Source of the DNA: Vicugna vicugna
Lineage: Eukaryota
Assembly: GCA_013265495.1 (NCBI GenBank)
Contig: MU063541.1
Coordinates: forward strand, 434,001-498,000
Length of the DNA: 64,000 nt
Direction of reading: 5' to 3'
The notes below the pieces were generated by a model. That model did no database searches and was not told the DNA's origin. It worked only from the letters and a program-made list of their open reading frames with translations. Position numbers and translations under genes: made by a program. Every line of letters starts with the position of its first letter. The stretch's first letter is position 1. Of this stretch, positions 1 to 39,940 are shown in pieces.

Positions 1-300
1 GATAATTAAACTAACAGTTTAAAGAGTTCTGGGAACCAGGTGACCTGGGTTCTGGTCCCACCTGTAAGGCTATCTGTGGTGTAACTTTGGGAAAGTCTGC
101 TTCCCATCTCTGGACTTCAGTCTCCACATTCTGAAAGGGAGGCTTGTGGTCTCCAAGGTCCCTCCATTTTTGCCATGTGTAATAATCTCTACCCGTCTCG
201 AGGTTCAGCCTTACCAGGCTTCACAATGTGCACCTGGCTAGCACCAAGCATTGCCTCCCCATCACCCCAGCGAAGTTCCACCTAGGGCCGAGGCGCTCAC

Positions 301-928
301 CTTCAGCCAGTCCCCGTAGTGGACGTAGCCCCCGATGTAGGCAGCGTAGGTGCTAATGGCCAGCTGGAGGGCCGCCCCCAGAGCGAACCAGCGCCGCTTC
401 ACTCCAAAGGACATGAAGCTAGCGCACAACACGGCCGCCCCCATGTCGAAGTACAGGTAGGGCACTGGGATGTCGGGCTTCCTGGAGCCAGGAGGGGGAA
501 AGGAATGAGGACAGAATGAAGCGGGGAGAAGAGCCATGAGACCCCTTGAGTTCCCGTAAGCTCCACTGCTCCCCCAAACCGAAGCCCCCTCTCATGGCCA
601 GGACCCCCGTACTAGGCTTGATACCCACCTTGCACCAGACCAGAGCCCCTAACAAGTCCGAGGTCCCACTTCCTCCCAGTACAAGGATCCCAGTTTCTGG
701 GTCCCAACGTCTTGTTCACCTCACCGCACCCCCATTCCTGGGACCGGCCGGACCACCCCCACCGCATTCGGCAGCTGCGCTGCCCGCTCACCGACGCGCC
801 TCAGCCCTCTCAGCGTACAGCATGAGCTGGCTGAAGCAGCCCCAGAAGGGACAGCGTGTGAGTAACACCGAACCCAACTGCATGATCAGCTGCAGCATCC
901 ACCGTCGCGAACCCATCTTCGACGCCAT
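301..928 (-). CDS. TMEM101: Transmembrane protein 101, coding exons 1-2 (remaining exons lie left of the window)
   Basis: Exon 1 is 792-928 (137 nt, MASKMGSRRWMLQLIMQLGSVLLTRCPFWGCFSQLMLYAERAEAR, donor GTGAGC). Exon 2 is 301-481 (181 nt, RKPDIPVPYLYFDMGAAVLCASF...GDWLK, AG acceptor, GTGAGC donor). Phases join, and the peptide matches recalled TMEM101. Confidence 0.97.
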
Positions 929-1060
929 CTTGAGGAAGGGCAAGCCGCCGGCCTCACTCCGGCCAGGGACGCGGGCGCGGAGATGCGACGCGCAACTTCC
1001 GGGTCTCGCGGGGTTTTGTGGGTTTCCCTCCCCACTCCTTCCGTTGGGAAACAAAGCTCT
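700..1060 (-). promoter_or_regulatory. TMEM101 CpG-rich promoter / first exon
   Basis: CpG-dense. ETS/GABP motif CCGGAAGT (995-1002 on -), YY1-like CAAGATGGCG overlapping the ATG (923-932), TCTCGCG at about 1004-1010. Confidence 0.75.
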
Positions 1061-1225
1061 CGCTCTCTAGTTCTGAGCTGTAGGAAGTGTTCTAGCTCCG
1101 GGATTCAACCCTTCCTTCAGCCCATGGAGACTTAAGGGTTCCCCTTGTAGCTGCAAAATTGAACACTAGAGTAGATTAAGGAACAGTAAGCGAACTAGTT
1201 TTTGAATGCCGCTAAACCTGGCCTC

Positions 1226-1561
1226 TGCAGGGAAAGTGGAGTTACTCCCATTCCCTGGCGGACATCGGGTTCCCAGTGGCTCAGCTATATTATCCAGCAT
1301 GCGCAGTACCCATGTATCGCTATATAAGCCTGACGCGCTGTGCAAGCTCAAAGGTTAGGCCATAGGTCATAGTTGGATAGATGCCGGCTATGTTAGCCTT
1401 GATATAAAAGGCAGAGGGGACTTGCTGCCGCCGCTGCAACTGAAGCCTGTGTATTCCACCTAGCAATAAAGGCGTGTCAGAGATACCTAGGGCTCCGCAA
1501 GTGTTCTTACGTCTGCCCGAATTCCAAGTGAATCTGCCAGGCCTTGAGCCCTTGCAATACA
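1226..1561 (+). repeat. 5' LTR of provirus
   Basis: Starts TG, ends TACA. TATAAAA 1403-1409, AATAAA 1465-1470. About 80% identical to the 3' LTR by eye (21 differences in the first ~110 aligned nt). Confidence 0.95.
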
Positions 1562-1563
1562 AT

Positions 1564-1581
1564 CGGTGTAGTTGGCAGGAT
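1564..1581 (+). other. Primer-binding site complementary to tRNA-Ser
   Basis: CGGTGTAGTTGGCAGGAT versus the tRNA-Ser 3'-end complement TGGCGTAGTCGGCAGGAT: 15/18 identical, with two mismatches being CpG-to-TpG changes. Lies 2 nt after the 5' LTR. Confidence 0.85.
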
Positions 1582-1596
1582 TGGCCGTGGACTGGT

Positions 1597-2990
1597 ATGG
1601 AACCCTCTGCACCCCCAGTGGGGTGGACTTGAGGGGTGGCCCTCGACCGAGTACGTGGTACTCGGTGGCGAGCCTTCTTTCTGCTTGGGCACCACCCCAG
1701 GACAGGCCCGAGGTGAATGGGTCCCCTGCCCAAGTGGGAAAGGCCCTGCAGAAGGTGGAGGAGTCCCTAGAAAAGCAGAATGCCCACAGGGCTGCCAGGA
1801 CCGTGGGGTGGGTGTTCCTCACAGCCCTGTGGGTTGAAACCAAAACCTCGCTGTGAGAGGCAGCGAAGGTTTGGGAGTTACAGGGAAAGGAAGAGGCTTT
1901 GGAATCCCGCATCTGTGCCCTAGAGGAAGATTTACAGACCCTGGAGAACTAACTGTTGCCCCCGTTGGTAGTGGTAAACTTCTCTGAATAAGAAGAGCCA
2001 CGACTGCGAGCCTGACCAGTAACACAGCAGCAGCAGCAGCCGCAGCAGCCGCAGCCGCAGCCGCAGCCGCAGCAGCAGCAGCAGCAGCAGCAGCCAATGG
2101 CCCCAGGAGAACAGATTGCTGGCCCACTGCAGATGACTGAGTTTACAAGGTACCACCCATGTACTCAGGCAGAACTGGTGGAGTTGGGCAAGCAATTTCG
2201 CCAAAAGCCTGGGGAGCCATTGGCAGCCTGGATATTACTCGTGTGAGACTTAGGGGTGGAAGGGATTATCTGTACTCCCCACGAAATGGAAAAATTAGTC
2301 TCAATGACCCTGCATCCGTCCTCAAGGCAAAGGCTACAGAATAGCCAGTGCAACAGCCAGAGTAACCATTCCTTGTTGGATTGGGTAATGGCCGCAGTGC
2401 ACATGGTGTGGGCCAATGTGGAGGACGTGCCCGAGACTGTAAGTAAATGGCAGTCCTATGCGGAACTGGTGCAAGTGCTCTGAGAGTTAGGGGTGCGACA
2501 GGCTGTGTTCAATGTAAAAACATATGGCCTTGATGAGGAGGGGTTTACAGCAGAATGAGGGATTTGGTGTTGCAAAACACCCCCTCAACATCTCTCAGGT
2601 CCCTTAGGATTAATGAAGTCACCATGGTGGTGGCAAGTTTGGGGAAGGCAGAAAGCCATCGTCAGCAAAAGGGCATACGGGCCATCACCTGACAACTGGG
2701 GAAGTTAGCTAAGAAGACTGGGAAACCCATCAAGGCCACATGCACTCAGATGTGGGTAGACCTTGCAGAGGCTGGTGTAGATCAAACTTAGAGAAAAAAC
2801 CTAATACTTATTTACTAGAGTTATGATAACAGTTCGGGGAGGATCAGAGGCTCACCCCCATGAAAAGGAACACCCCTGTGAAGAGCAACAAGGAGTCCCA
2901 GTGGACCCGAGTAGTACCCCTTGAGGACCATGTGCTACCCCAGGAGGTACCCAGGGGAGGGGATACTTTATTTACATTTAAATAGGATGA
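1597..2990 (+). pseudogene. ERV gag remnant (ERVL/HERV-S type)
   Basis: WYSVASLLSAWAPP...GSPAQVGKALQKVE...VGWVFLTAL, and CTQAELVELGKQFRQKPGEPLAAWIL (ERVL/Fv1-like capsid region). Multiple stops and frameshifts; boundaries approximate. Confidence 0.75.
2025..2093 (+). repeat. Compound trinucleotide repeat (CAG)5 CCG (CAG)2 (CCG CAG)3 CCG (CAG)8
   Basis: 23 uninterrupted CAG/CCG triplets (69 bp) read directly from the sequence. Confidence 0.97.
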
Positions 2991-3029
2991 AGGCCAAGGA
3001 ACCCTTCTACAGGGGGTGGGCAGGGACCA

Positions 3030-3340
3030 GAGGCCCCATGTGGAGCTTGCTATCTGCTGGTCCCTGACCAATGTACAGCAGGTATTGGCCTTGATGGACA
3101 CAGGGGCTGAATGCCAAAAACTCACTCATGGCAACCCGGATAAATTTTAAAGCCCGGTGTCATACATAGATGGCTATGGGGGGAGAAGTATCCGGGAAAG
3201 CTATACAACTACCCCTTGGGATAGTGCAGTTGCCCCCTAGGAACTATAAAGCTCATGTTTCCCCAGTACCAGAATATATACTGGGCAGAGACGTGCTCCA
3301 AGGCCCATGGCTACAGACAACCACTGGTGAGTTCCGCCTG
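3030..3340 (+). pseudogene. ERV aspartic protease remnant
   Basis: PHVELAICWSLTNVQQVLALMDTGAEC, with catalytic DTG at 3097-3105. Downstream VSPVPEYILGRDVL resembles the retroviral protease GRD motif. Confidence 0.85.
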
Positions 3341-3379
3341 CGAGTATGGGTGGTGAAGATGGTAGAACGGGGACGCACA

Positions 3380-5790
3380 AAACACCCTCCAGTGCAGCTC
3401 CCTGTTCCCCAGCGGGTCACCAGTACCAAACAATACAGACTGCCAGCAGGTCATGACGAAATTACTGGCACCACTGCAGAATTGGAAAAGGTGGGTATTT
3501 TATGGCTGGCCCATAGTCCGTTAATTCTCCTGTATGGCTGGTGCTTAAACCCAGTGATTCTTGGAGAATGACTCTGGACTGCCCAAAGTTAAATGCCACA
3601 GTACCCTCGGTGGCCGAATTGATGGATCAACTAAGCCATAAGCTGGGCATTTACCATTTCTTGGCCAATCTGGCTAATGCTTTTTCTTCTATTGACATCA
3701 CCCCTGAGAGTCAAGATCAGTTTGCCTTCACCTGGGAAGGGTGACAATGGGCATTTAGGGTCCTACCTCGGGGATGTTTACATAGCCCTACATTGTATCA
3801 TGGTTGGTAGCCTCCGACCTAGCTGGATGGGAATGGCCACCTACAGTGTCCATGTACCATTACATTGATGATGTTCTTTTAACTAGTGATTCTCTTGCAG
3901 ACTTGGAGAAGGCTGTGCCCCTTCTGTTGTCACACATGAAAACGTGGCTGAGCGCTAAACAAAAACAAATTGCAAGGGCCTGGATTGTCTGTCAAGTTCC
4001 TGGGCGTTGTGTGGTCGGGTAAGACTAGAGTTATTCCTGATGCGGTTACTGATAAGATATAGGTCTGTCCTACCCCAACTACAGTGAAGCAGTTACAGAC
4101 CTTTCTGGGTTTGTTGCGGTACTGGAGAGCTTTTGTCCCCTACTTAGCCCAGTTGATACGGCCTTTGTATGCCCTGGTACACAAGGGAGCCACATGGGAT
4201 TGGACCCCAGATGCAGGACGGGCCTTTCCTGATGCCAAGAGAACAATTAAGGTGGCTCAAGCCTTACATGTTTCTGATCCCACCCGGCCCTGTGAATTGG
4301 ACATGATGTCACTCCTGCAGGATTTGGTTGGGGTCTGTGGCAGCATTCAGAGCATTTGCAACAGTCCATAGGGTTTTGGTACCAACTACAGAAGGGAACA
4401 GAAAGCCGGTTTTCTCTCACGGAGAAACAGTTGGCTGCCATATACGCGGCATTACTGGTGACTGAGAGTATAACTGGCTTGACGCCAGTGACGGTACAGA
4501 CCACCCCCCCATAGTGGGTTGGGTAAGAGAGGACCTTGAGGCTCCGAGGTAGGGCAACACAAACACCTACACTGGCAAAATGGTGGTGGGGGCAAACTTA
4601 CAGCAGCAGAGTGTGTTCTCCACTAGCCCTTTACGCGCGGAGCTCCAGGAGGTCCTGGAACTGGTGACTTACGTGGATAGTATATCCTCCGCCAAGCCCC
4701 CTTTGGAGACAGAACCAGAGGTTAGTTCCTACCAAGAAGGTAGGGACCCCGTGCCAGCAGATGCATGATATACAGATAGTTGAAGGCAAGGGCAGGCTCC
4801 GACTTGGACAACGGTTGACTTCCAGCCTGCGTCTGATACTATTTGGTATGATACCGGGACTGGCCAGAGTAGCCAGTGGCCAGAACTATGTGCAGTATGG
4901 TTGGTTGTAGCCAATGAACCATCACCCATTGCTGCCTGTACTGACAGTTGGGCAGTCTATAGAGGACTGACTCTATGGATCTCTACCTGGCATTTCAATA
5001 AATGGGACATGCATAGGCCCTTGTGGGGCCAGGCCTTGTGGCAGGACCTATGGGAGTTGGGACCAGAAGCAGGTGACTGTGTTCCACGTGACTGGACATG
5101 CACATCTGGCCTCACTGGGGATTATGAGGCTGATACCGTGGCGAAGTTCAATGACTAGAAACTGCCCCGCGAGATAAGGCTCCCGACAGCCATGTGGCGC
5201 AATGGCTGCACTGACACCTGCTACACACAGGGCAAAAGACAATGTAGGCAGCTGTGCATGCCTCAGTCCTACCAGTGACCTTGGCAGAGGTACAGAGTGC
5301 CAAACTCGCTGGCAAGTGGACGTTATTGGCCCGCTGCCTGCCCCACTCTTAAGGCTACTGTTATGCCATCACTTGTGTAGGTACTGCCACAGGCCTGTGA
5401 GTGGCCTATCTGGCTCAACACCCAGATCAGAGGGCTGTGTTGCATGTGCTAGCACGCCTCTGCGCAGCGTATGGACGCCCTCTGGTGAATGAAAGTGACC
5501 AGGGAACTCATTTTACTGGAGCCCAAGTGCAAAGATGAGCGTGGGACATGAACATTGAATAGAAGTTTCACGTCCCTTATAACCCAAAGGCCACAGGTAT
5601 TATAAAGCAGAACAACGGCCCATTGAAGCAAGGACTGCAGACCACTGCGATAATGCCAACTTTGGCAGGATGAACCAGAAGGTTATGGGATGTCCTGTGA
5701 GCACTTAATGAACGCAGCCAACAAGGTGGCCTAGCCCCAGTAGAAGCATTGTCCGTCGCGCCACTGCACCTATCCAGGTCCAAGTCCAGA
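3380..5790 (+). pseudogene. ERV pol remnant (RT, RNase H, integrase)
   Basis: LKPSDSWRMTLDCPKLN, DLANAF-like NLANAFSSI, QFAFTWEG, YIDD at 3861-3872, KQLQTFLGLLRYWRAFVP. RNase H YTD at about 4768 and CTDSWAV. Integrase WQVDVIGPLP at about 5310 and HVPYNPKATGII. Frameshifted. Confidence 0.9.
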
Positions 5791-5829
5791 TGAAGGATAT
5801 TTTGCTAAAACCTGGATTCAGACAACAGG

Positions 5830-6950
5830 GTTTGTTGGGACTAACACCCTAGCTGATTGGGCGCACATTTACGTGACAATTGCTAACCAGTCGGCTTGCT
5901 GGATCTGTACTGAATTACCTGTTAGCGCCTCAAATGGGCTCCCATGGAAAAGTAAATCAGCCACTGAGGCTAATTGGACTTGGTTAAGGTTGTGAAATGA
6001 CACTAACCCACAGTGGAACTTAACCAAAAAGAAAGGTATTAGCTGGGGTAAGAGAGCGTGTAAATGCTCTTAGCTCTAGATGGGATATTCAATATGGGAT
6101 GGTCTCGGCAGGTTGACAGTGGATATGGTAGAACCTGTTGCACCCATCCCCCTCTGCACTGAGTTTGGACAGAAGGGCCCATGTTGAATGGACCCCGCCT
6201 GGCCTATGCATTAATGTTACCCAAATGACGCAGAAGGAGAAATGGGGAAAGAGGAATGGCAGCTTGGCCTGGCCTGTCCTTTACAGGAGCCTTTGGGTCT
6301 GTGGGCAGAATGGCGGCCATATCTTCTCCACAGTTGGACTGGATGATATACATGGGGGTGGCCACTTCTCCCTGCGCAGGTAATGCCTACCTTACAAACC
6401 TGCCCAAGTAATTGAAGAGTATTTAAGGCACGCCACGGAGTATAGTGTACCCTTGGTGGTATTATCCCTTAGCCCCTTTTTCCCCCAAGGGGCCACCATA
6501 GTGACAAAAGCAGAGGTCACTGCTTTAGCAGTGCACGTGGCCAGGGCATTCATTGAGACCCATAAAGCCCTGGGCCTCCTTAATGATGAGGTATAGCAAC
6601 TACGAAAGCTAGCTTTACAAAATCCTATGGCACTTGGTATTTTTGACAGCCTCAAAGGGCAGTGTGTGAGCTCTTATAGGGTCAGATTGCTGTGTTTATG
6701 TTCCAGATGCTCACCATATCAGCCAGGCTCTAATGGCCTTGGGAAAAGAGACAACAGCTGTTGAACACCTGACTGGAGACCCCCTACAAGAATGATGGGG
6801 ATCACTGACCTCCAAGTGGCGCTTGGTAGCAGCCATTCTGGGAGGATCTGCTTGTGTATTAGAGACCTGCTGTTGCAGTCTCTATTGTTGCTGTGGATCA
6901 TGGATGCAAGGGTCCATCCTTCTCGCCAAGGGACCTTCGCGGAAGACAAC
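5830..6950 (+). pseudogene. ERV env remnant, gamma-type
   Basis: SU: CWIC (5897-5908) followed by GLPW. TM: LQNPMALGILTASKGSV*ALIGSDCCVYVPD after removing one T at about 6640 (ISD-like segment and CX6CC with the first C mutated to a stop). Hydrophobic anchor followed by CCCSLYCCC. Confidence 0.85.
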
Positions 6951-6992
6951 TAATGCGTAGATTGTGCGGCGAGTGACCCTCAAGGGATGGAA

Positions 6993-7338
6993 TGTAGGGG
7001 AAATGGAGTTACTCAGGCTCCCTTGCTGGACATCCAGTGCCCAGTGGCCCAGCTATGTTATCCCACATGCACAGTACCCATGTATCATTATATAAGCATG
7101 ACTTGTGCTACACAAGCGCAAAGGTTAGCCCATAGGTCATAGTTGGATAGATGCTGGCTTTGTTAGCCTTGATGTATATATAAGGTGGAGGGGACTTGCT
7201 GCCGCCACCACCACCATTAAAGCCTGCGTATTCCTCCCTGCAATAAAGGCATGTCAGAGATACCTACAGCTCCGTGAGTGTTCTTCCGTCTGCCTGAATC
7301 CCGAGTGAATCTGCCAGGCCTTGAGTGCTTACAGTACA
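6993..7338 (+). repeat. 3' LTR of provirus
   Basis: Starts TG after the PPT, ends TACA, followed by the TSD GCCTC. AATAAA 7242-7247. Confidence 0.95.
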
Positions 7339-7343
7339 GCCTC

Positions 7344-7485
7344 CAACCCTAACTGTGACTTTGGGCATGTCGCCTACACTTTCCAAGATTCATCTGGGAA
7401 ATGGAGGTGACATCTACCTCACAAGGTTGTTGTGAGGTTGAAATGTGACGTTGGTCCTAGAACATAGTAGGGGTTTAATAAATGG
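7344..7485 (+). mobile_element. MIR SINE fragment adjoining the provirus
   Basis: ctgtgactttgggca...catctgggaaatggaggtgacatctacctcacaaggttgttgtgaggttgaaatg resembles the MIR core. Confidence 0.7.
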
Positions 7486-9069
7486 TGTACACAACACACA
7501 CACACCTCAGAGGAAATCCCTCTGCTTCTATTTAAGTTCAAAGTAAGGGGTTCTCCTAAGAGCCACTCTAGAGAAGTTTGGTCTTGGCCTGCCTTTCTTC
7601 TGTCCCCTGAGAGACATGGACATAGGGGACATCTCAAACAGTTCATTTTCTCCAATGCTCCCACTCTGCAGCAGGCTTACAACTGGTCTCCCCCACTTCT
7701 TTGGCCTCTTTTGTTCTCAACTCCTCTATTCTGAGTTTACCTGCTACCTAGGCTTCTGGCAAAAATCATCTCAACCTGAGACCCAAGCATCCTGATCCCA
7801 TCGCCACCCCTCATTCCATTATTTCTAATAGGGATGAAAGGCAATCAGGGAAGATGGCCTTTTTAATCCTTTAGACCATCTTGACTCCCACTCCACCTCA
7901 CTTATTTCCCACATGGTCTCAGGAGCAACTTTGTCTGCTCCTGCAAGGACAGAGCTTCAGCTAGATCCTGGCCAATGAGGTGAGGGCCTCAGGTGGAACA
8001 CCTATGCACCCACGTGTATTCCTGCACTATGTGCTGAGTGCAGCCCCAGCCCAGGAATGGCAAGAGGAATCTCAGCTCTAGCTACCTGCCCTGCTGGCCT
8101 CCTGCTAGAGCCTCACCCCACAAAAGCAATGGCAATCAGCTCTCAGGAAGCCAAAGCCCTGAGCATGGGGATGGGGGACAGGTTGAGGAAATCTCCAAGG
8201 CCTTTTGGCCTTATATCCAGGGGAGCAGGACCCCGCCCTGCTTTTTCTAAGAACAGGTATTCCTCCCCTCCACCCCCTCCTACCTTCTGGAGCCCCAGCT
8301 CCTGCTCTTTCTCTTGTCAGGATGGCAGCTTGAGGCCCCTTGGAGCCCTACCTCAAGTCAGGAAACAGACAGGTGTCTCCTCTCTGATTCCTACTTCCTA
8401 AAGCGTCTAGGCACAAAGGAAGGGAATGTTCTTTCTTGTTCTCGTTAGGCCTAAGGCTCAAACACTCCCCTCTGGCCTTCAAGGAGTGCCCAGCATCTCC
8501 TGGAAGAGGGGCGTGGGGCCAGTGTGTTTGTACCCAGTGCTTCTGCCTTGCCCAAGGAGGCCAAACTAGTTAGTTTCTCTCTAGGTTCCCAAGTGTGCTC
8601 ACAAGCTCCACCCAGCAAACTCTTAAGAGAATAATGGCCACATAGAAGAGTTGGTTACCAAGGGCCAGGGCATCTCATTAAAGACTTCATTATAATCCTC
8701 AACTGAGACACTCATCTCACAGATTAGGGAACTGATGCTTGGTAAGGCCAGGGAAGTTGCCAAGTCATACTGCTAATTAGTGGCAGAGGTAAAATCTGAC
8801 ACAACTCAGGCCTTTCTGAATCCAGTTGTGCTCCTAACTACTAAGCTCCTGTGCCCAAAAGACTGGGCCACTGTCCCCCATGTCAGCCAAACACCCATCT
8901 AAGAAGTCAAGGTCACATGTAAGTAACACAGATGAGGCCCAGAATGGGAAGAGCAGCTGAGCCACCACCAACCTGGGGTATTGGTCTGAGCCTGTGGTTG
9001 ATCACAGACTTGAGCCACTTTGAATTAATTCAAGTGATCTGGTTCAAGCAAATTATACTGGAAAAACAT

Positions 9070-13428: not shown

Positions 13429-13560
13429 GGGGGACGGTATAGCTGAAGCAGTAGAGTGCATGCTTAGCACACACAAAGTTCTCGGTTCAATCCCCAGCAC
13501 CTCCTCTAAAAATAAATAAATAGATCTAATTACCTCCCCCCAACCCCGCCCACAAAAAAT
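13429..13560 (+). mobile_element. tRNA-derived SINE (camelid vic-1-like)
   Basis: GGGGACGGTATAGCTGAAGCAGTAGAGTGCATGCTTAGC...GGTTCAATCCCCAGCACCTCC, with A/B boxes, an A-rich tail and ctaattacctcccccc. Same family as the copies at 27855 and 36104. Confidence 0.85.
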
Positions 13561-15984: not shown

Positions 15985-32800
<16,816 letters not shown>

Positions 32801-35169
32801 NNNNNNNNNNNNNNNNNNNNNNNNNNNNNNNNNNNNNNNNNNNNNNNNNNNNNNNNNNNNNNNNNNNACGGGGCGTGCTGACGTCACGCTCCGGGGCGTG
32901 GCCTGGGGCTGGGTGGGGCGGGAGCCTAGGTGGTACAGTAAAGAAGAGGAAATAAAGGGGAATCTGAATAATTATGTTTGTGCAGCTATGCCCGCTTAGT
33001 AAGGTGCTTGCATGGTCCATTTTAGAAGTTAAAGATAAATGACCTACGTGGAATGAAAAAGAGGAGAAAGGAAATGCAGTCTCCATTACATGCACCCCTT
33101 GCTTGACACACGAATTTAATGAATGAACTCTATCATTTTACATATGAGGAATCCGAGCTCCAGAGGACTTAATGAAACTTGCTCAAAACGATTATACCTA
33201 ATTACAAATTGGTAATGGAAACAACATTGGCCGTAGAATTAGCCAAACCGGAACTGGGATCCCACTAAGTTGTATGACCTTGAGCAAATTACTAAACCTG
33301 ATCCTGTTTCTTTACTCCTTCTCTATTATCACTACTGAGCATCCAACAACCCTTCGAAGTGGGAATCAATATCCTCATTTAACAGATGAAGAAACTAAAT
33401 CTTAGACTAAACTTTGTCCAGGGTCGCTCATCTAACAAGGATTCAGTCTACCTGTTTCCAAAGACGCTGAGCTGCTATTTACTGCTCTGCTATATTAGGT
33501 AATACTTAATAGAGTGCTTAGGTTATATGAGATAATGTGTACAAATGCATGGCATTTAGTAGATCTTTAATAAATGATACTTCCTGTGTTATCACCTATC
33601 ACCCTTGGAACTCAGGATTCTTCCCCATCTTGCCCTTTTCTCTAGAAAACAAGGCAAAGGGCTATACTGAGGAGCAGTGGCAGTGACAAAGGAATTTTGG
33701 GCCCCCCATTAATAACCATCTTGTATACAAAACAGTCTTCTTAAGGTGTAAGTACTATGCAGATGCATTTTCAAGCACGACCATCACCAATTGCTATCCC
33801 TAACCCACCTACCCTTCCACTGTAGAAATTCTAGAGCCTCCTGTATGAATAACAACAGGTTGATCTTTCTCTAGTTCAGAGGGAGGCAATGGGCCAGTCC
33901 TGGCACTACTTAACCTGAACAATTTCAAAAGTGTTTCCTTGCCTTGCAAGAGACATCAACTTCCTAATGTTGGGCCAATATTAGTACAATCACTGTAATA
34001 GAAATAAACATTCTGCTCCCTCATACTTCAATTCTTTCAGAGAACTTTCCTGTCTCCCCCATAACAAATCATAGGTAACTGGCACTCCACTTTTTATATG
34101 GCATTGTAATTATAGGTTTTCATATATGACTGCCAGGCACTCTTAGGAAAAGCTTCCTGAAGGAAGTGAAAAATCTGAGATGTGAGGACAAAGAGGGAAA
34201 GAGTGTCCATGTTCCAGGCAGAGGGAACCACACATGTCAGGATCCCTAAAAGGAGAGAGACTTGGTAATTTAAGGGATGATATAGTAGCTCAGAAATATT
34301 ATGAAACAGAGTGTGGGAGTGGGCTATTGTTTGTCCGGCTAGAACCCAAGCAAACTTTCAAAGCCTTAGAAAATTTAGGCTTTTACCCTGGGGCAATTGA
34401 AAAACACTTAGCAAGGGAGTGAAATGAGATTTTTATCCAGCTTCCTTCCCCCACACCTTTTTAATCAGTGAAATTAATCTCTTAACAAGAAGAGCCCAGA
34501 TTTACAGTCTCATTTTCACCCCTCAAAAAACTCTCCAAGAACAAAATTGCTTGAGATAGGAACTGGGGAGCCACTTCAACAGTCTCCTCCTACCACTCCT
34601 CTGCCTCTAGGCAGGACCTTACCTAGGAGAGCTGAGATTTCTATTTTCTGCGTGTGTTCCTCCAGAGAATTATTCCAGATTTTGTCGTGGGTGTTTGCCC
34701 CTCCTCTTCCCGTACTAACTCAGCTACTACCTCATGATTTATCTGCCCAGCGGGGTTTTGGAAGAGAGGTAACGGAAGGAGATGGACAAGGCAACCTTAG
34801 AACTGGGAGGAAGTGACTTAGACTGTGCTATATGTAAGAACTCTCAAGTCTTCAGGGAAGACTCCTCAAAAATCAAGAGCCTTATTTGTCAGCCTCCAAA
34901 TCAACAACGAATGAATTCGGGCGAGAGAGTCTTGGGCTAGGGGAGGAAGGCATGGACCAATGAGTTGTGTGTGCAAACTTATTAGAGTCCGGCTTCCGCG
35001 TGGACCCGTGATTCCTGGCTCCCGGGAGCAGGGGTTGTTCCTAGCTCTCTCTCCAAGAGATTTCGAAATATCTTTGGAAGGTAGCGGTACTGAAGGAGAA
35101 AGGTCTGGTCTGGAAGGAATCCTGGCCCTGGAGATTACATATCTATCTTCACGACAGCAAAGGAAGAAC

Positions 35170-35567
35170 TCTTGACGCGCCGCCGATCCTCAGATTAGTC
35201 TGTCCCTTGACCCGGAACAGCAGCAGGAGCCGCCTCTACACCCGATGCCCACGTGCCGGCAACAGCAGCCACGTGGGGCTCTACGGAAACGCCTTCGCAA
35301 AGATTTGTCCCCTGCGCTGCCCAGTAGAAAGGAAGGCCGGGGAGGAGCTCAGGAGGAAACGGTACCGGGTGGGAGGCCGGGCTCGCCCTAGCCTGGGACT
35401 GCCGGGGGCGGGGTAAGGGGCGGGGTTTCGCCGGCCGCAGTTGGGGGGCGGGGTCTCTACTTGGACGGGTGGGCTTTAGAGGGCAGTGAGTAGCAGCTTC
35501 CTTGCCTCCTGGGCTCCTCGTCTTCCGCCCTAGATCAAACGCTGGCCGGGTCGGCTTCTGGGTCGCC
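35170..35567 (+). promoter_or_regulatory. G6PC3 CpG-island promoter / 5' UTR
   Basis: Tandem GC boxes GGGGCGGGG at about 35405-35424 and about 35445-35453. Two CACGTG E-boxes at 35250-35255 and 35270-35275. Confidence 0.75.
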
Positions 35568-39669
<4,102 letters not shown>

Positions 39670-39940
39670 CTTGAGGTGCATCCTACTGCCACATTCCCTC
39701 TCACAAGGCCAACACTCCGTGACCTCCATACTCCAGGAGGCAGCCCGTCCCCTTCCAGCTTCCAACAAGCCCTGCTCATCTTGAATTTTCCACTTCTCCC
39801 ACCACCTGTCTTAGCCCCAAAGAAGGGCCTTCTATCTCCCAGGAAGACTGGTCCTCCTTCCTGTCCCAAGTCCCTAAGAGCAAAGGCAACAGTAAGACCA
39901 GCAGGTTCCTGAAACACTGTGAGGGGCTCAGAGCAGCCCC

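Follow-up and report, generated by a model that had tools for sequence, protein, structure and literature searches.

A 6.1-kb provirus (positions 1226-7338) lies beside the gene TMEM101 in the 64,000-nucleotide stretch of the Vicugna vicugna assembly GCA_013265495.1 analysed here (contig MU063541.1, positions 434,001 to 498,000 of the forward strand; hereafter the window). It is very probably an endogenous retrovirus (ERV) of the ERV-S lineage, with two long terminal repeats (LTRs) and broken gag, pro, pol and env. It likely inserted 15-60 million years (My) ago in an ancestor that was itself likely a camelid, and its decay since then has likely been neutral. The element is likely an ordinary new copy of the ERV-S lineage known from people, bats and rhinos.

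The element possesses the parts that define an LTR provirus: two direct TG...CA LTRs, a target-site duplication, a primer-binding site (PBS) and a polypurine tract (PPT) (Table 1). The LTRs are identical at 284 of 336 ungapped columns (84.5%, or 82.1% with gaps counted; BLASTN E 2e-93), so that the "about 80%" given in an earlier note on this DNA was slightly low, and they differ by 35 transitions, 17 transversions and four gap events. The GCCTC duplication is exact at both flanks, for which the chance of a match is 1 in 1024. The PBS begins two bases past the 5' LTR, and 15 of its 18 bases (16 of 19) match by eye the tRNA-Ser(AGA) antisense probe of PMC13478228 (in part), the same tRNA-Ser 3' end being given in PMC3299991 (in part; statements from sources so marked extend to the available portion of each). 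Two of the three mismatches are CpG-to-TpG changes, i.e. CpG decay. The PPT, with purines at 10 of 11 positions, is followed directly by the 3' LTR. All these landmarks had been named before from the letters alone, and all were found in place.

For the reverse transcriptase (RT) tree, 50 proteins were chosen from ~240, of which 46 passed the coverage filter, giving 47 of 51 rows with the window included (P0007, P0033, P0120 and P0132 were dropped) and 284 columns. The tree places the window in a 100/99 clade of nine rows (mole, armadillo, colugo, three galliform and two further rows), which is nested in a 100/99 class III group of 30 rows; the class I-type rows fall outside this group, as does feline foamy virus. 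A branch separate from the window clade holds the dUTPase-bearing rows, among them a mouse MuERV-L-like row (P0028, identified by its Mus members and dUTPase), and no named class II row is among the 47. A second tree, of RNase H and integrase (27 of 29 rows; P0007 and P0156 dropped), agrees with the RT tree, joining the window and the mole element in a 100/97 clade. The nearest protein is the class III pol product of Talpa occidentalis LOC129144682 (XP_054543882, P0004), which is also the closest row to the window by path length in both trees. RT identity to the window is 73.6% for mole, 58.5% for chicken, 37.5% for mouse MuERV-L-like, 30.9% for foamy virus and 30.2% for a lizard class I-type element; from RT to integrase the mole protein is identical at 488 of 683 positions, and over pro-pol the galliform cluster P0002 is identical at 470 of 873 (53.8%). 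The best PDB matches of pol are foamy-virus RTs (E 6e-24), with class II RT matches at E 4e-5 and up. The phylogeny that had been suggested as a check, here a tree without HERV-S, keeps the window apart from class I-type, foamy and MuERV-L-like rows.

The interior retains the order gag-pro-pol-env, as previously described, with gag recognised by tblastx, pro by its DTG motif, pol by YIDD, RNase H and the rve domain, and env by motifs and by-eye blocks. Gag matches the loci L001, L002 and L004 at 36-40% over 112-157 residues in tblastx, L001, which has an intact gag, giving 35.7% over 157 residues and 129 bits. No CCHC zinc knuckle was found by strict or relaxed motifs in the three frames of 1562-3100, where decay could hide one. 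The CAG/CCG repeat within gag, to which published HERVS Gag has nothing similar, is likely a post-insertion expansion. Pro-pol contains 15 stops and 14 frameshifts over 3085-5811 in a frameshift-aware alignment against P0002. Such alignment also revealed that ~27 residues are missing from the zinc-binding region of integrase, and the pol alignment stops near 5830, leaving 78 residues of the mole reference or 148 of the chicken reference unaligned. The provirus now encodes nothing; "complete", as the earlier note called it, describes the layout and not the coding capacity, given these stops and frameshifts and two missing integrase parts.

The env remnant was called from motifs together with by-eye blocks of HERVS Env. 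About 180 codons lie between the CWIC motif and the junction of the surface (SU) and transmembrane (TM) subunits, which matches a minimal gamma-type SU that lacks a separate receptor-binding domain (bioRxiv 2024.03.17.585361, in part).

Table 1. Features of the provirus and its flanks (positions in the window; ISD, immunosuppressive domain)
Feature	Position	Strand	Details
5' LTR	1226..1561	+	336 bp, TG...CA; TATAA at 1323 and 1403; AATAAA at 1465; 13 CpG
3' LTR	6993..7338	+	346 bp, TG...CA; AATAAA at 7242; 6 CpG
Left target-site duplication	1221..1225	+	GCCTC, exact
Right target-site duplication	7339..7343	+	GCCTC, exact
PBS, tRNA-Ser	1564..1581	+	15/18 matches
PPT	6982..6992	+	10/11 purines, directly before 3' LTR
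gag remnant	1650..2985	+	start approximate; stops and frameshifts; no CCHC; ends in TAG (2983-2985) in frame with pro
CAG/CCG microsatellite	2025..2093	+	23 triplets, Gln/Pro, in frame within gag
pro remnant	2986..3340	+	3' end approximate; DTG at 3097-3105; 25/29 block to HERVS Pro by eye
pol remnant	3341..5831	+	RT, tether, RNase H, integrase; Pfam RVT_1, RT_RNaseH, RNase_H, rve
RT YIDD	3861-3872	+	within pol
RNase H	from ~4769	+	within pol
Integrase	~5173-5831	+	without ~27 residues near 5303 and C-terminal part; Pfam rve E 7e-9
env remnant	5832..6960	+	class I (gamma) type; broken in several places; stop 6958-6960
CWIC	5897-5908	+	N-terminal env motif
SU/TM junction	near 6436	+	
ISD-like stretch	from 6615	+	
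X-x6-CC	6667-6693	+	X is an in-frame stop
TMEM101 first coding exon	792..928	-	Pfam TMEM101 E 3e-12; ATG (928) and splice donor read from sequence

These remnants suggest how the parent virus may have worked. It would have primed reverse transcription with tRNA-Ser, and its integrase would have cut the DNA with a 5-bp stagger, immediately upstream of the CpG-rich promoter of TMEM101, leaving the provirus oriented away from the gene. Pro-Pol was possibly produced by read-through of the TAG that closes gag in the pro frame, which we propose because the rhinoceros ERV-S and the frog XtERV-S keep gag and pol in one frame with a stop between them. Env would have been of the covalently linked gamma type, the parent virus presumably carrying the same class I env as HERV-S.

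The link to HERV-S itself was drawn indirectly, from statements in Vargiu 2016 (PMC4724089, in part) and from a by-eye comparison with the window. According to that source, HERVS Pol clusters with avian AviERVIII/GGERVL18, and the marks of HERVS are a PBS for Ser, a PRIMA41-like class I env and the absence of both zinc finger and dUTPase. The element shows the tRNA-Ser PBS and class I-type env motifs of the lineage, and no Gag zinc finger was seen. By-eye blocks against the published HERVS proteins, hand-picked from the best-matching stretches and thus overstating overall identity, give 14/16 in Gag, 25/29 in Pro, 15/18 in RT, 19/31 in SU and 13/19 in TM, compared to 7/18 for the MuERV-L-like P0028 in the same RT block. 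Matches in all four genes, env included, would be hard to explain other than by kinship with HERV-S, and the element is likely a class III ERV-S (HERV-S-like). The two Pol trees and the HERVS blocks thereby bear out the earlier assignment to the class III HERV-S lineage, with Ser primer and env and distinct from canonical ERV-L.

Besides the choice of blocks, several points weigh against this assignment and the history built on it. Neither tree contains HERV-S, HERVL66 or HERVL32 sequences, and the identity of the chicken cluster P0002 with AviERVIII/GGERVL18 is likely, no firmer than that. The lineage is further characterised by a Pol C-terminus with neither dUTPase nor GPY/F; the best dUTPase match in the element has an E of 2.4, but the region that would hold the enzyme is absent from the copy and cannot be scored. 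Env has no significant match in Pfam, PDB or the ESM Atlas, and the homologue search kept none of its 607 candidates. The TAG read-through is deduced from degraded sequence, the camelid host is deduced only from a SINE taken to be Vic-1, and the age range spans four-fold because the rate is uncertain.

With HERVL66 and HERVL32 outside both trees, the element could belong to a sister env-bearing class III group (HERVL66-/HERVL32-like, or a separate laurasiatherian branch) and not to ERV-S proper. HERVL66 is highly similar to HERVS, with the same envelopes and likewise without dUTPase (PMC4724089, in part), and a second, more distant class III element of the dromedary (P0033) implies several such branches in camelids. 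However, the PBS of HERVL66 and HERVL32 is listed as "T?" and not S in the same portion of that source, whereas the element has a Ser PBS, and all four of its genes match HERVS blocks; we consider a sister group improbable. A canonical ERV-L that had its dUTPase deleted and acquired env and a Ser PBS has next to no probability. The usual region of the ERV-L dUTPase is missing from this copy, so the absence of the enzyme proves little and is weaker evidence for ERV-S than had been claimed; in addition, noncanonical HERVL chains with env exist (PMC4724089, in part). By contrast, RT identity is 37% to the mouse MuERV-L-like row and 74% to the mole element, both trees split the element from the dUTPase-bearing rows, and Pfam finds no dUTPase in P0004 or P0002, the full-length relatives nearest to the element; against three dUTPase segments, these two give nothing significant (best E 0.08). 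The Ser PBS, the env remnant and Pol in a separate clade all depart from ERV-L, and canonical ERV-L is largely refuted.

The age of the putative ERV-S insertion was estimated from its LTRs. Their Kimura two-parameter distance is 0.177 ± 0.026 (0.150 without CpG columns), which corresponds to 25-59 My at mammalian rates of 1.5-3.0e-9 substitutions per site per year. At the camelid rate of 2.5e-8 per 5-year generation (PMC8605555, in part), our own arithmetic gives 15-18 My. The computed distance, itself a suggested check, agrees with an old insertion, roughly 15-60 My. Decay since then was likely neutral. APOBEC-type hypermutation was considered and rejected: of 36 aligned Trp positions, 6 face a stop, near the ~4 that we estimate for neutral decay from half of the LTR distance. 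Nor is there a sign of gene conversion between the two LTRs, whose differences are randomly spread and leave no identical run of unusual length (p 0.52). The earlier note found it surprising that the element had escaped recombination to a solo LTR. Retention of both LTRs needs no special explanation, because camelid genomes hold 987-1316 two-LTR ERVL-class elements each (PMC8605555).

Nor is an S-lineage element in a non-primate host a surprise, as the earlier note had it, since ERV-S relatives have been published for bats, the black rhino and birds. HERV-S-related ERVs occur in 29 of 61 bat species (PMC12402889, in part), and the avian relatives of HERV-S are AviERVIII/GGERVL18 (PMC4724089, in part). 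In the latter source, HERVS Pro matches GGERVL18 and CARERVR1 in Repbase, and the env of horse ERV3-1N_EC clusters with PRIMA41, as HERVS env does. The horse EqERV-S families are named by their PBS only (PMC5682256, in part). In frogs, XtERV-S is a class III element that is primed by tRNA-Ser and has a class I env, with gag and pol in one frame plus a stop (PMC8278194, in part). General background is given in PMC1224870, PMC10536682 and PMC11089739 (all in part). No camelid ERV-S by name, and no report of this locus, was found in the literature searched, which left subscription journals mostly outside; motif searches in the supplements of Vargiu 2016 (PMC4724089) likewise gave no matches. The family may already be catalogued.

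Compared to HERV-S (HERV18/HERVL18, LTR18), the window copy shares the class III pol, the Ser PBS, the lack of a Gag zinc finger, and a class I env with an N-terminal CWIC and a similar ISD, but it resides in a non-primate host, lacks two integrase parts and has the CAG/CCG repeat in gag. The mole element P0004 is an uninterrupted 825-residue prediction, in contrast to the broken pol of the window, so its insertion is probably younger. On a very short branch in both trees (0.03-0.08), it may represent a young ERV-S that is well preserved in the Iberian mole. The black rhinoceros ERV-S.1-Dbi is intact (bioRxiv 2024.03.17.585361, in part); like the element in the window, it has env, a Ser PBS and a 5-nt duplication, and a stop divides gag from pol within one frame. 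It differs in that its two LTRs are identical and 792 bp long and its env is alpha-like and lacks CXXC, compared to ~340-bp LTRs and a CWIC env in the window.

The galliform P0002, likely AviERVIII/GGERVL18, is alike in the pro-pol identity given above, in gag homology and in its place in the same 100/99 RT clade. The galliform-type L001 differs from the window and from the rhinoceros ERV-S in that gag and pro-pol are in different frames, and it shows no meaningful env match to the window. This class III element, at 118-5189 of a metagenome contig, has an open gag of 563 codons and an open pro-pol of 1142 codons. MuERV-L and HERV-L share with the window a class III RT with YIDD, a 5-bp duplication (PMC8278194, in part) and the lack of a zinc finger, but have a Leu PBS, a dUTPase, no env, 37% RT identity and a separate branch. 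The dromedary protein P0033 (KAB1258119, Camelus dromedarius Cadr_000022945) contains pieces of RNase H and integrase from a second class III lineage; camelids carry more than one such lineage, because P0033 branches outside the group of chicken, mole and window.

Metagenome contigs were also searched. A search with an alignment of the ERV-S clade retained 5 of 169 candidates; at best, their segments reach 51-63% identity to the mole protein, and at the DNA level no segment is near the window (65-76% in short patches). A 20-base LTR motif had no match in metagenome contigs, and none of the four candidates from a search of viral contigs with the mole protein was related.

The 5' LTR starts 298 bp from the TMEM101 ATG, on the upstream side of the gene, and gene and provirus are divergently oriented, TMEM101 being on the minus strand and the provirus on the plus strand. 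Compatible with an ERV-S provirus of the age given above, the 5' LTR might have been taken into the TMEM101 promoter region, as an enhancer or a divergent transcript start, with the locus kept by selection. The position of the LTR next to the CpG-rich promoter would suit such a role, as would its TATAA and AATAAA motifs and the 13 CpG that it retains, where the 3' LTR has 6. However, the CpG asymmetry is not significant (7 versus 2 decay-type sites, sign test p 0.18) and is expected from proximity to the CpG island alone, and the LTR differences are random without a long identical run (p 0.52). The sequence shows no sign of co-option, position being the only hint, and we regard such a role as unlikely. 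As an observation in its own right, the CpG excess of the 5' LTR (p 0.18) hints at lower germ-line methylation near the CpG island. No literature linking the TMEM101 promoter to an LTR was found, in a search that left subscription journals mostly outside. There is also only a slender chance of a wider scenario, in which an uncatalogued camelid ERV-S family near the younger mole element would reflect cross-order laurasiatherian spread, and the 5' LTR in the TMEM101 promoter would drive a camelid-specific divergent transcript or tune TMEM101.

Words of 700-7700, a stretch that contains the provirus, are present at a fraction of 0.88-0.94 in 14 of the 24 sequencing runs listed (12 guessed to be DNA and two unlabelled). 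The 14 runs come from six studies with three coded organism labels (12 + 1 + 1), one holder possibly being the source of the assembly. The full element is not private to one assembly, because the 14 runs hold these words. Separately, 0.11-0.32 of the words are found in six runs that are RNA or guessed to be RNA, above the share of the TMEM101 end; their contigs may be DNA or a relative's copy, so this is a lead and not evidence.

No further copy of the LTR or the interior was found within the 64-kb window, which contains 1216 N, none of them inside the provirus. A simple short interspersed element (SINE) resembling tRNA-Ala(AGC), with an A-rich tail, occurs in three copies (13430-13520, 27855-27950 and 36109-36198; 77% identity to the middle copy), and Rfam and ARAGORN scans of the window found nothing besides it. 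This SINE is probably the camelid Vic-1 and is the main evidence on the host, making a camelid likely, though indirectly and short of proof. Open reading frame fragments at ~35500-39700 are presumably G6PC3, and those from ~43400 (minus strand) presumably HDAC5, both named from human synteny; on the same ground, the CpG-rich, gapped stretch at ~32500-33000 would be the LSM12 promoter. SINEBase lists vic-1 among the simple SINEs of camels (PMC3531059, in part).

The significance of the provirus is modest. ERV-S, a class III lineage that combines an ERV-L-like pol with a class I env and has been sampled thinly, gains a likely camelid data point in its host range. With both LTRs and an exact duplication present, the element can be dated and can serve as a presence/absence marker in camels, South American camelids and other artiodactyls. 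Moreover, that a mole element whose pol frame is open stands so close to it is relevant to the duration and breadth of ERV-S circulation. The locus would matter more only if the 5' LTR acted in the TMEM101 promoter.

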